From Catajapyx aquilonaris (lineage: Eukaryota), in NCBI GenBank assembly GCA_000934665.2, contig JYFJ02001947.1, positions 45,881 through 65,880 of the forward strand: a stretch of 20,000 nucleotides of DNA, given 5' to 3'. A program made the position numbers and the translations under genes. The notes under the pieces were generated by a model. It was not told the origin of the DNA and ran no database searches. It saw only the letters and a program-made list of their open reading frames with translations. Positions within the stretch are counted from its first letter, which is position 1. Each line of letters starts with the position of its first letter. Positions 1 through 19,273 of the stretch are shown here, piece by piece.

Positions 1-84
1 CACTGTTTCCACAGAAGAAATCCTTTTTCCGATTCGGGGATCGAACTCGGAGCCTCAGAGCCACTATACACCATGTCGCCCTCC
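1..84 (-). mobile_element. tRNA-derived SINE head (partial; body runs off the window start)
   Basis: Minus strand reads GGAGGGCGACA-TGGTGTATAGTGG (A-box-like)-CTCTGAGGCTCC-GAGTTCGATCC (B box)-CCGAATCGG. The A-B spacing is too short for a full tRNA (no anticodon arm) and there is no acceptor-stem closure. Confidence 0.6.
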
Positions 85-1602: not shown

Positions 1603-1943
1603 GGGGAGGTGTGGTGGCCGTGATGGGAACGTCTCGGCTTGCTGTGTGAAAGGCCCCAGGTTCGATCCCCGCCTGGGGAACTTTCCTTTCACCTGCGTCA
1701 GGAGGGTCTCTGACCTGCACCAAGGAGGTGTCTGGCAACCTAACCTCCTGGGGAACAGCACATGACCCCTTGACAGATCTTGCACTTGCACCTATGTTCC
1801 CTCCCCAAAAAATCCCTACCCCTACCCTACATCCTTGTCTCCTTGCACCGGTGTATGAAGTTAATTCAGAAAATGGAGTGAAATGGTGGTATTCCACCCC
1901 CCTAAAAAGGCTCAGCCTTATCACGGGGTAACGTAAAAAAAAA
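1603..1943 (+). mobile_element. Full-length tRNA-derived SINE (family A)
   Basis: Starts GGGGAGG, with A box TGGCCGTGATGG and B box GGTTCGATCC. About 340 bp long, ending CCCCCCTAAAAAGGCTCAGCCTTATCACGGGGTAACGT plus an A-run. Flanked by a perfect 17-bp TSD ATGAATCAAACGTTGCA (1586-1602 and 1944-1960). Confidence 0.95.
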
Positions 1944-2664
1944 ATGAATCAAACGTTGCATAATAGTCGTACAATGGGCCATATAAAAGGTTTCCAGCAC
2001 CAAATGGCCCCTATCCATCATAAATGAGATTGGATGGTTACTTGGGCCAAAGGGCACATACCGTACATATCATCGGTTACAGGAAAATCATAGGCATCAG
2101 CACATTTGCTCAACTGTCAATTTCATCAATGTCAGAATCAGCCAAATTGTGAATTTTAATGTCATTCTGTCTTGTGGAATTCATCTAAGTTGATTGCCAT
2201 TCCTTCCAAACTTCTAGAGAGGATACGTGACCTTTTGCTCAATTGCTCTTCATCTGTCCATGCGGCTAAGATGCCGATCGCGAAAAGTCCCTGTAACTTT
2301 GGTGCAAGAAATCGAAGGCAAGGCAAAGTGTCCTTCAACCGAACGAGTAGCCCGTGGCTTCCTTACATCTAGGGACTTGGACAGCACAAAGAAGAGCACA
2401 AAGGCGGTCCAGGTGTGCTGCCAATGGTATTCCCATGTACGCAATTACGCGGATGGCTCCTCTGCACCGTCGATACTTGACCTTATTTTTGCCCCCTATC
2501 CACACATCCGCCATTGATCGTAAGTGGAGGTGGTGGTGGAGCTGGCTCTACTGCATGGTATAGAGGCCCCAAAGCTATATGTAAAGGACCTCGGTGTTGG
2601 TTGGTGTGTCAGGTGGCAGTGTAGGTCCCACAGTGCAATGCGGTGGAAACACGATTGCAGATAG

Positions 2665-8935: not shown

Positions 8936-9040
8936 TCGAATTTTCGTCCTACTGCTAGTTACTGCTAACTTAGCAGTACCACTGACAAACACTGGTACTG
9001 CTCAGTTAGCAGTAACTAGCAGTGTGGGGAAAATTCGACC
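8936..9040. mobile_element. Small palindromic MITE, PIF/Harbinger-like
   Basis: Left arm TCGAATTTTCGTCCTACTGCTAGTTACTGCTAACTTAGCAGTACCA pairs with right arm TGGTACTGCTCAGTTAGCAGTAACTAGCAGTGTGGGGAAAATTCGA around a short loop. The right end ...CGACC is followed by TAA, matching Harbinger GG..CC termini with a TWA target. The left terminus is degenerate. Confidence 0.7.
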
Positions 9041-12360: not shown

Positions 12361-12654
12361 ATTAATAACAGTTATTAATAACCACAAGTGGACATGTAGG
12401 CAAAATGGACAAGTCCCACAGTCGGGGCCAGCACTGCACCTACTCAATGAGCTTCCTCCGTGTCCCTTCACCTTCTGCTCTTACTGCAACGTTATTTTTT
12501 TCCTCGACATTCCAAGGCCTAAGCTTCGACATACTAGTCACAGTTGTTGCCATCTTTCTGAGGCTTGTTGGCACTTCGGAAAACTCAAATTTCAGAGTTT
12601 TCTGACGTACCAACAAGCCGTAAATAAATATTAATTTATTATGATAATATTAAT

Positions 12655-12939
12655 GTTCCCTCTTTTCCCCCTGACCGCACTCATTGGCTCTATGCTGGCA
12701 TAACAAAAGAGGCAGCATATAATCTGTACAACTTTTTTGAAAATGTCGTAAAAAGAATCAACCTCTGCACGAACTGATGTATGTCATGGAATTGTATCAT
12801 AGTTTTGTACTAACCACTCTTTCCTTTCCCGCTCCTATCTCTTTCAACTATTCTTTGTATCCAGAGCGGTCCCCCCTAAAAGAACCCAGCCCTAAAATGG
12901 GGTAACGTAAATAAATAAAATAAAATAAATAAATAAATA
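12655..12939 (+). mobile_element. 5'-truncated LINE-like 3' end (ORF C-terminus, 3' UTR, (TAAA)n tail)
   Basis: 11-bp TSD ATAATATTAAT (12644-12654, 12940-12950). An open frame runs from the left junction: VPSFPPDRTHWLYAGITKEAAYNLYNFFENVVKRINLCTN* (stop near 12777). A pyrimidine-rich UTR follows, then CCCCCCTAAAAGAACCCAGCCCTAAAATGGGGTAACG and TAAA/TAAAA repeats. Confidence 0.7.
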
Positions 12940-12963
12940 ATAATATTAATATTTAATAAGTTT

Positions 12964-13062
12964 GGGGGAGGCACGGTGGCTGAGATGGTAACGTCTCGAC
13001 TTGCTATGCGAAAGGTCCCGGGTTCAAATCCCCACCCGGGAGCAAACCTTTCGCTTGCGTCA
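12964..13062 (+). mobile_element. SINE family A head only (3'-truncated copy)
   Basis: Aligns to 1603-1700 at roughly 75-80% identity by eye, with A box TGGCTGAGATGG and B box GGTTCAAATCC. Homology stops abruptly after TGCGTCA. Confidence 0.9.
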
Positions 13063-14965: not shown

Positions 14966-15691
14966 CAGGGCTATTCAACTACTACAAGGTCCAGTATTTG
15001 CCTTTCCTGGGCCATTGAAGGTCCGGACCCCCCCCCCCTCCCCTCCCAGTAAATATGTGGATTTTATATGGTACCACAGGGTTCATTTTCTAAAATAGAA
15101 ACATGTGCAGCAAGGGTAGAAGGGTCTATCAAGACTGGACATATTAAGACATTTTCGCCCTTTTATGATGTCCTGTACAGGCGCATAATAGGCAGAAATA
15201 ATTTCGTCGGGGGGCCCATTTCATAAGCACAAGCCGTAAAGGGTGGGGATTTGGCGGGGGGGGGGGGTTAAGGTCACACGAGCTTAGGTGAATGTGGGCG
15301 ATTTGAATGGGTGTGTATTTGATGAAATTGGTAGCACTTTTTCCCAGAAAAAATAACATGAATTAGTAATTTAAAAAAAAAAATCCCTGTGATAGGGCGG
15401 AAACGGGCGGAGCCCTTTTAGGGGGGAAGGGGAGGTTCCCAAGGGAGGGCACTGTAATTATAGTCATTTCTGACTTTCTGAAATACACCAGACCTTTTCT
15501 CCTGGCCTTGGGCAGAGTAGGGAGTGCAATTCTGCCCTGGCATGTCGGGTGAAAAGCGGAAAAAGACCCGGCCAAGCAGAGGTGACGGGGATGAATTAGT
15601 AATTTCAAATGCTGTTTCAAACTGTCCTGTATATCGTCGCACTCCGGACAAAATTGCGTCTGGACCACGGTCAGCCAATTGAATAGCCCTG
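14966..15691. mobile_element. hAT-superfamily MITE
   Basis: Perfect 13-bp TIR CAGGGCTATTCAA / TTGAATAGCCCTG and an 8-bp TSD CTATAGTG / CTATATTG (7/8; 14958-14965, 15692-15699). Subterminal GGTCC(A/G)G motifs at both ends. Contains a nested SINE. Confidence 0.88.
15373..15590 (-). mobile_element. SINE family B, 5'-truncated copy nested in the hAT MITE
   Basis: Perfect 15-bp TSD ATGAATTAGTAATTT (15358-15372, 15591-15605). About 150 bp align closely to 19071-19214. The 3' end reads CCCCCCTAAAAGGGCTCCGCCC..GCCCTATCACAGGG. Confidence 0.9.
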
Positions 15692-16476: not shown

Positions 16477-17014
16477 CAGAGTGATCAGAAGTCAGTACCT
16501 ATTTTTATTTCAGAATAATTTTCCGAGTATACCTACAAAAGTGAAACTTGATTCAAAATGTGCGGGAATTTATGAGATTTGAGCTGGGTGACACCTTGCT
16601 ACTGCAGCACTGCTAGCGAGCGCAGCTTGACACTTCTTCCACGGTAGCGGTGCTAGTAGGGTCACCTTTGAACAAAATGTCGGACCACCTGTCTATGATA
16701 TCACAGGCCAGCCCCCAAACACTCCTACCCCATCCTTATGTCACAGTCAGGTGGTCCAACATTTTGTTCTAAGCTGCTCCTGCTACAGCCCCACCACAGC
16801 AAGAAGTGTCAACCTGCGCCAGCTAAAAAAGCCACCATGGAAGAAGTGTCAAGCTGCGCTTGCCAGCAGTGCCGCAGTAGCAAGGTGTCACCCAGCTCAA
16901 ATCTCATGAATTCCCGCACATTTTGAATCATGTTTCACTTCCGTAGGTGTACACATGTACTCGTTGGAAAGTTATTCCGAAATAAAAATAGGTACCAACT
17001 TCTGATACACCCTA
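16477..17014. mobile_element. Tc1/mariner-type fold-back MITE nested in the mariner
   Basis: Termini TA|CAGAGTG...CACCCTA|TA (consensus TA-CAGGGTG). Long inverted arms (about 16477-16700 versus 16738-17014) pair almost throughout around a ~40 bp spacer. Confidence 0.92.
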
Positions 17015-17907: not shown

Positions 17908-18063
17908 TTACTCTCTGCCTCTTGCTCGTTCACGAAGCTGATGGATGTGCTCTTCCTTCACAGGCTCATATCCTATAATGACAGGTTTCGCCAAATCTGG
18001 TGCCATCTGGATCTTCATGAATCCACTCAACTTCTGGACTTTGCTGGCAATTTCTTCACAGCT
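17908..18063 (-). CDS. Candidate host-gene coding exon (internal or terminal), product unknown
   Basis: Minus-strand acceptor TTGTTTATTCAACAG, then only one open frame: SCEEIASKVQKLSGFMKIQMAPDLAKPVIIGYEPVKEEHIHQLRERARGRE. Composition is protein-like and GC is raised. It ends either at TAA (17908-17910) or at a weak donor GA|GTAATG (exon end 17912). Confidence 0.55.
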   Translation of the reverse strand, partial: SCEEIASKVQKLSGFMKIQMAPDLAKPVIIGYEPVKEEHIHQLRERARGRE

Positions 18064-19037
18064 CTGTTGAATAAACAAGTTATTAATCAACAGGATATAC
18101 TGTATTATTGAATCTAGCTACAATAAAATAATTTCATAGCTCCTTACAATGGGGGCCGTAACATGCAGATGTAAAGAATGGAAGTTATTAATTTGGTGGA
18201 GGCAATTTCTATTTCCATGGCCATGCAATCTGTTTGGAGACATTCAGATTCAATCACATTATTTTACTCACATATTCAGCATCTAAAACCATCTTATTAA
18301 CCCTTTGTCTCCAGGGGCCATGTTGGTTGTATGATCATATGATCACATATAATATGTTTTTAAAATTCATTGGAAATTTCTTTGACCATAGTCTTAGGAA
18401 AGGTTTGTAGTTTACATGTTCAAGAGTATTTACGCCACTCGTGTGATATTTGTAATGGCATGACCAGGGCTGTATTTATACTTGAGTCGTGGGTAGGCAG
18501 TTGGTCATCTGCCGCTCCCCTCCCCCACTCCTGAATACAGTATTGAATAATTTAACATTGACTGCATATACAATGCAAGTATACAATACAATACAAAGAA
18601 ATTCACCTTCTGTTCGAACAGCAGTTGAATTTAGAAAATGTTTAATACGGATAGGGAGCAGTTACACTAGAAACGAGGTGGGAGCGTGTTCCTCGAAACA
18701 CGGTTTTCCCAGACGCAGTCGGGAGTGCGTTTGGGGGGAGTGAGACGTGGTGCGGGTTCTGTATCTCGTTACCGTAGTCTGGGCGCTGAGGCAAAGGTGC
18801 CTCCGCAGGGTCAGAGAAAGAGACGAAGGATGTTAGCGCGATGCATTTCAGAAGCAGCAGCGACAGTTGCTTCTTTTCTTTGCTTTTCAGTGCAATAGTC
18901 GAAAAAGTACAACATAGCAGGGTCTTGGGCTTCCCAAACACCGGAGCTATTATTTTTGCGTAGCTTGTTACGCCCCGATTCAAGTGACTAATTTACTCCT
19001 AGGCGTGCTCCATAAGGTTGTCGAATGTGGCAGTTTT

Positions 19038-19273
19038 TTAAATATTATTTTTATTATTATTTTTTAAATACCCCGTGATAGGGCACAGCCCTCTTAGGGG
19101 GGAAGGGGAGGTTCACAATGGAGGGCGCTGTAATTTTTAGTCATTTCTGACTTTGTGAAATACACCAGGCCTTTTCTGCTGGCCCCGGGCAGAGTAGGGA
19201 GTGCAATTCTGCCCCGGCCTCCCGCTTGGCTGGCCAGTGGCGTAACCACTCGACCACCATGCCTCCCTAGCTG
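19038..19273 (-). mobile_element. SINE family B, copy with tRNA head and internal deletion
   Basis: 13-bp TSD ATGTGGCAGTTTT (19025-19037, 19274-19286). The head GGGAGGCATGG-TGGTCGAGTGG (A box) joins the body directly with no B box. The tail reads CCCCCCTAAGAGGGCTGTGCCCTATCACGGGGTATTT followed by an A/TAA-rich run. Confidence 0.9.

Follow-up and report, generated by a model that had tools for sequence, protein, structure and literature searches.

In the eel, the L2-clade LINE UnaL2 and its partner UnaSINE1, a pair of the stringent type, resemble the elements analysed here in that a short 3' stem-loop sequence, followed by short terminal repeats, is common to a tRNA-derived SINE and another retroposon; the eel partner is a full-length LINE with a reverse transcriptase (RT), and mobilisation has been shown experimentally, as set out in parts of PMC3747384. 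Stem-loops with compensatory changes are described for such stringent-type LINE/SINE tails in sections of PMC3747384 and PMC4824008, and according to the former LINE copies are mostly fragments of 100-1000 bp that have lost their 5' part. In bivalves, where HCD-SINEs go with CR1-Zenon, Nimb, L2 and CR1 LINEs, SINE/LINE tail homologies extend over 35-61 bp at 72-95% identity, and one CR1-Zenon LINE has a tail matching those of Meta, Deu, V and Core SINEs (sections of PMC11481361). The LP-SINEs and bipartite non-autonomous LINEs found in molluscs also lack a tRNA head and have tails common to tRNA SINEs (passages of PMC4758252 and PMC5786205), and the I element of Drosophila, of the I clade, is a LINE with TAA-type repeats at its end instead of pure poly(A) (a section of PMC3747384).

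The stretch of Catajapyx aquilonaris DNA considered here (the window, 20,000 nt) contains a retroposon-like insert at 12655-12939 whose last 41 nt recur at the ends of two SINE families. Compared with UnaL2, the insert is linked to no RT, the inner stem of its module is broken, and the terminal repeats differ among the window elements. Its 41 nt at 80% fall within the range of the bivalve tails, but the bivalve LINE partners are known as consensus sequences of more than 4 kb with an ORF2 encoding RT and endonuclease in the sections of PMC11481361 that present them, against one 285-nt copy and no consensus here. LP-SINEs and bipartite LINEs carry a recognisable piece of LINE 5' UTR, as the relevant passages of PMC4758252 and PMC5786205 have it, whereas the 5' part of the insert matches nothing searched. 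The likeness to the I element, the insert ending in TAAA/TAAAA, is one of description. Since one LINE tail is common to several SINE superfamilies in bivalves, a layout of one LINE and two SINEs would not be new; it is already documented as a kind, and such a system in the window would at best be a further case.

A 3' module common to four retroposed elements

The elements concerned are three SINE copies and the insert.

1603-1944, plus strand: SINE A, with a tRNA-like head, a body, the module at 1897-1937 and an A10 tail; target-site duplication (TSD) of 16-17 nt at 1586-1602 and 1944-1960
19038-19273, minus strand: SINE B1, with an A-box-like motif in its head, a body, the module at 19102-19062 and an A/T-rich tail; 13-nt TSD aaaactgccacat
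15373-15590, minus strand: SINE B2, with the module at 15426-15384 carrying a 10-nt insertion, and a T11 end; 15-nt TSD aaattactaattcat
12655-12939, plus strand: headless retroposon-like insert, with a body, the 3' module and a (TAAA)n-type tail; its 5' limit could be 12650
12871-12911, plus strand: the insert's copy of the module, with the outer CCCC/GGGG stem kept and the inner stem broken
12912-12939, plus strand: TAAA/TAAAA terminal repeat run, read directly

All three SINE copies are genuine products of retroposition and have TSDs: 16-17 nt in SINE A, 13 nt in B1 and 15 nt in B2. The body of B2 is that of B1 from gggcagaattgc on, the two copies aligning over 138 nt at 90%, and the 5' end of B2 differs over 53 nt.

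Ungapped comparison of the insert module with that of SINE A gives 33 identical positions out of 41, and the same pair is recovered as 48 nt at 79% in a repeat search of the window and as 45 nt at 80% (E 2.3e-6) by in-window blastn. When the insert module was scored against all 41-mers of the window on both strands, the highest values were 41 (itself), 33 (SINE A) and 28 (SINE B1), above a background made up of a single 41-mer at 25 and the rest at 23 or less. The B1 module matches that of SINE A at 32/41 positions; in B2 the module is interrupted by the 10-nt insertion. In the sequence 5' of the module, the insert and SINE A have nothing but chance-level words in common (blastn with word size 7, E at least 0.6), and in-window blastn found no similarity between the insert and the SINE bodies; homology between insert and SINEs is confined to their 3' ends (33/41 and 28/41). 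The first-pass annotation had reported the terminal match to SINE A, the unrelated sequence upstream of it and the recurrence of the module at the end of both SINE B copies, and all three observations are borne out, the last with B1 at 28/41 to the insert and B2 bearing its insertion. In all four elements the module lies directly 5' of the terminal A/T-rich run, and both are followed by the downstream copy of the TSD; this is the position expected of a LINE-derived tail. The 3' module common to these four retroposed elements is real and far above chance.

A degenerate pattern of the tail had no match in viral, metagenome and prokaryote-genome contig collections, nor had a 27-nt stretch of SINE B in metagenome contigs, and nothing resembling the module tail appears among the bivalve SINE alignments in the portion of the supplement of PMC4824008 that was covered. 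The idea of a Deu domain was set aside, a motif from a published primer for a bivalve Meta/Deu SINE having no match in the window at three or fewer mismatches.

RNAfold predicts the same two-tier hairpin for the modules of SINE A, B1 and B2, consisting of an outer CCCC/GGGG stem of 4-5 bp, an inner stem of 5 bp and a loop of 3 nt that is longer in B2. The second pair of the inner stem, A-T in SINE A, is G-C in SINE B; the two sides differ together, making one compensatory pair. The insert module has GAACC as its 5' arm, lacks the two middle pairs of the inner stem, and is predicted to fold in its outer stem only. Two G-to-A transitions would account for this, and the broken stem may be decay of this single copy. 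A two-tier 3' stem-loop conserved in both partners was accordingly not found, being present in the three SINE copies and lacking its inner tier in the insert. The terminal runs are unlike as well, namely A10 in SINE A, mixed A/T in B1, T11 in B2 and TAAA/TAAAA in the insert, all read from single copies with no consensus.

The insert and its open frame

Three further features bear on what the insert is.

12655-12777, plus strand: 40-codon open frame ending ...KRINLCTN*, with its TGA at 12775-12777
12644-12654, plus strand: upstream copy of the putative TSD ataatattaat, 11 nt exact
12940-12950, plus strand: downstream copy of the putative TSD ataatattaat, 11 nt exact

ARAGORN found no tRNA gene or Pol III head in the insert, and blastn no likeness to the SINE heads of the window; a 5'-truncated SINE copy would also be headless. 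The open frame, which translates as VPSFPPDRTHWLYAGITKEAAYNLYNFFENVVKRINLCTN*, had led to the insert being described as ORF-bearing and to the frame being put forward as a possible C-terminus of an ORF2. The frame is indeed there and ends as claimed, but its length is that of chance: open frames of at least 39 codons start at 37% of sampled window positions (any of the three forward frames), and 82% of 261-nt window tiles contain a forward open stretch of at least 40 codons. The insert even has a longer open stretch, of 54 codons in a different frame (12741-12902), which runs across the supposed 3' UTR.

Nor did protein searches supply relatives that would identify an ORF2 end. For the 40-aa peptide a word-indexed search gave no candidate among proteins of 71-2000 aa, phmmer gave no match at E <= 0.001 among 1.84 billion representatives, and Pfam gave none at E <= 10; in the ESM Atlas it had no usable neighbour and a recognition of 1244, where 2300 is reached by 91 in 100 known-family proteins. 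A query of 40 aa has low search power, and by our estimate close relatives alone would score, so these results remove support for a LINE and do not refute one. The 54-aa alternative frame had Clr5 as its sole Pfam match (E 0.19), which we took as noise. RT and endonuclease families had no Pfam match among the 84 open stretches of at least 65 aa in the window. The 40-codon frame is no evidence for a LINE and is not to be counted as the end of an ORF2; a LINE fragment of 260 nt could be all 3' UTR, needing no coding segment, and this one may be just that.

The claim that the insert is flanked by a TSD fared only somewhat better. The repeat is exact over 11 nt; it sits in AT-rich DNA beside a TAAA-type run, and its length is reached in 105 of 3000 resamples drawn from a Markov-1 model of the AT-rich flank (3.5%, p about 0.035). 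Among 22 AT-rich tiles from other parts of the window, 1 shares an 11-nt word with the downstream flank of the insert. The TSD of the insert is marginally above chance.

Copies elsewhere in the sequenced sample

Contigs from four runs, all of one sample and one study, were matched to 12555-13004 at a likeness of at least 80%. Such contigs show presence, not absence, and the comparison skips repeats at 12901-13004, giving no cover there for the tail of the insert or for the SINE next to it. De Bruijn contigs also break at repeats and can mislead there.

The contig of the locus itself has a depth of about 17-29 over the compared stretch. Over 12750-12794 the depth equals exactly that of this contig in all four runs (summed, 19-29), with no other contig equally alike. 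On either side of this interval parts of the insert occur elsewhere. Among the matches listed, 12650-12710 is found with 1 difference in contigs of 431, 294 and 176 nt (three of the four runs) and 12683-12734 with 1 difference in a 152-nt contig (all four runs); together they describe a second place alike over 12650-12734 (2 differences), both flanks of which are unlike the window. Its similarity begins within 5 nt of the proposed start of the insert at 12655. For 12807-12897 the matches listed hold only one to two further contigs at a likeness of at least 80%, these being of 301-343 nt and at 87% (12 differences) in three runs; in the fourth the match spans 12807-12870, with 7 differences. 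No empty-site joint for the insert is among the matches listed, and the 8-letter loose end that the comparison shows behind 12654 is too short to be informative. Neither a longer collinear copy nor a truncation series was seen in the contigs of this one sample, which cannot exclude such copies.

Taken at face value, the contigs suggest that the insert family is very low-copy. Because sub-segments alone of the insert are found elsewhere, it is possibly also mosaic, and the history of its 5' 85 nt may differ from that of its 3' ~110 nt.

Just upstream of the insert, at 12562-12640, lies a multi-copy short repeat that is found in up to 12 contigs, with a summed depth of 530-850 at 12570-12599. 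The loose ends of its other copies resemble terminal inverted repeats; it looks MITE-like, and the window copy is seemingly without its left end.

Origin of the insert

The insert had been proposed as the 3' end of the LINE that moves both SINE families, or of a close relative of that LINE. The step from a shared tail to a LINE rests on the open frame, and as that frame is of chance-level length the data cannot tell whether this is so. The present copy is not the driver itself, being truncated and having a broken inner stem. Our preferred reading, held tentatively, is that 12655-12939 is a 5'-truncated, low-copy copy of a non-LTR retroposon, most likely from the end of the 3' UTR of a LINE akin to whichever gave the SINEs their tails. 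The apparent low copy number is a better fit to a LINE lineage than to a SINE family. On this reading the last ~41 nt of the insert would be the same 3' recognition module as ends SINE A and SINE B, and the SINE tails would derive from a LINE lineage akin to that of the insert. The LINE reverse transcriptase would bind the terminal stem-loop module and A/T-rich run, on its own RNA or on SINE RNA, and prime on nicked target DNA; early stops would be common, producing 5' truncation and leaving a target-site duplication behind.

A somewhat less probable origin is a third non-autonomous retroposon with the same tail, possibly 5'-truncated, which could be a SINE family, an LP-SINE ('LINE-promoter SINE') or a bipartite non-autonomous LINE. 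The insert shows no coding signal of any kind, and SINE-like heads abound in the window (that of SINE A and those from 12966 on the plus strand and from 10392 and at 26-55 on the minus strand). Homologous tails are common among different SINE families in the sections of PMC11481361 and PMC4824008 that treat them, and parts of PMC4758252 and PMC5786205 deal with headless short retroposons whose body or tail recurs in tRNA SINEs. That the second place starts at 12650 may also indicate that the 5' end is a fixed one and not the product of truncation at random. This origin sits poorly, however, with a very low apparent copy number at a likeness of at least 80%, when the neighbouring short repeat is in up to 12 contigs, and with an insert that has no Pol III head; and the second place stops short of the tail, unlike the full-length copy that would be expected.

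It is unlikely, though the contigs hint at it, that the insert is a mosaic or has been wrongly delimited, so that only its 3' ~110-130 nt (about 12807-12939) are a retroposon with this tail and 12650-12734 is a separate low-copy sequence, an old flank or a template-switch piece. Copies of one LINE made by target-primed reverse transcription should reach the 3' end, and the partial copies seen are what hints at a mosaic: among the matches listed, contigs of the same sample carry 12650-12734 (2 differences) without the downstream part and others carry 12807-12897 (12 differences) without the upstream part, while no other contig runs over 12750-12794, and the TSD on which a start at 12655 depends exceeds chance by a small margin only. 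Against this, the breaks to which De Bruijn contigs are prone at repeats could imitate such a pattern, the contig evidence being that among the matches listed; no alternative TSD is visible by eye at 12735 or 12807; and the 11-nt repeat coincides with the start of the second place (12650 against 12655), which favours a real boundary.

That the tail likeness is merely a chance match of C-rich, A-rich low-complexity sequence deserves hardly any credence, for although the module has C6, an A-run and G4 and the compared stretch is a mere 41 nt, the blastn E of 2.3e-6, scores of 33 and 28 of 41 where nothing else in the window, on either strand, is above 25, and the same placement relative to the terminal run in four elements all speak against it.

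Should the insert be the end of a LINE, this would identify what drives at least two SINE families of an animal whose genome is poorly catalogued and define a stem-loop of ~41 nt for mobilisation assays. The present value of the locus is mainly one of annotation, in the form of four window elements with one 3' module and one compensatory stem pair.

Other features of the window

The 5' end of SINE B2 (15538-15590, minus strand), 53 nt unlike the B1 head, lies within the clean 15-nt TSD. Its reverse complement aligns weakly to the B1 head, with a score of 19 that is equalled by 8 of 2000 shuffles, and twin priming, with inversion of the 5' end, could account for it. At the other end of this copy a T11 run (15373-15383, minus strand) directly precedes the TSD in place of an A-rich run; it might be a read-through Pol III terminator.

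Further tRNA-like heads akin to that of SINE A are present at 12966 to about 13060 (plus strand), 10392-10310 (minus strand) and 26-55 (minus strand). The shared module was not found downstream of any of the three, so other tail types are probably present in the genome.

Both SINE B copies are matched in antisense by the Rfam model WT1-AS_5 (RF02207), a 79-nt model without structure that derives from a mammalian lncRNA, at 19087-19165 and 15411-15488 (plus strand). The matches span all 79 model positions with 27.5-27.7 bits (E 0.006-0.007 for the whole window), against a gathering score of 80, and take in the first ~16 nt of the shared module. Either a retroposon domain of ancient common origin or a chance match of purine-rich sequence could lie behind them. 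The boldest construction, according to which the module and the ~60 nt before it in SINE B are an ancient bilaterian retroposon domain, fossil in the mammalian WT1 antisense locus, and the insert is the 3' end of a putative uncatalogued LINE lineage with this tail, we consider very improbable.

The only Pfam match among the 84 open stretches of at least 65 aa was RMI1_C, to an exon-like stretch at 17911-18117 (minus strand; E 2e-6, 28.1 bits, cut-off 27). Longer homologues were looked for and none appeared at E <= 0.001; the window is probably part of an RMI1-like gene or adjacent to one. At 8936-9038 there is a near-perfect hairpin with 49-nt arms, 88% complementary, and a 5-nt loop. It gives sub-threshold matches to Rfam miRNA precursors (mir-624, 35.6 bits, E 5.5e-4, gathering score 100) and is probably a small foldback repeat. 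Nested long inverted repeats occupy 16484-17006, with arms of 122 nt at 92%, 88 nt at 75% and 41 nt at 90%, and look like a foldback or MITE-type element.
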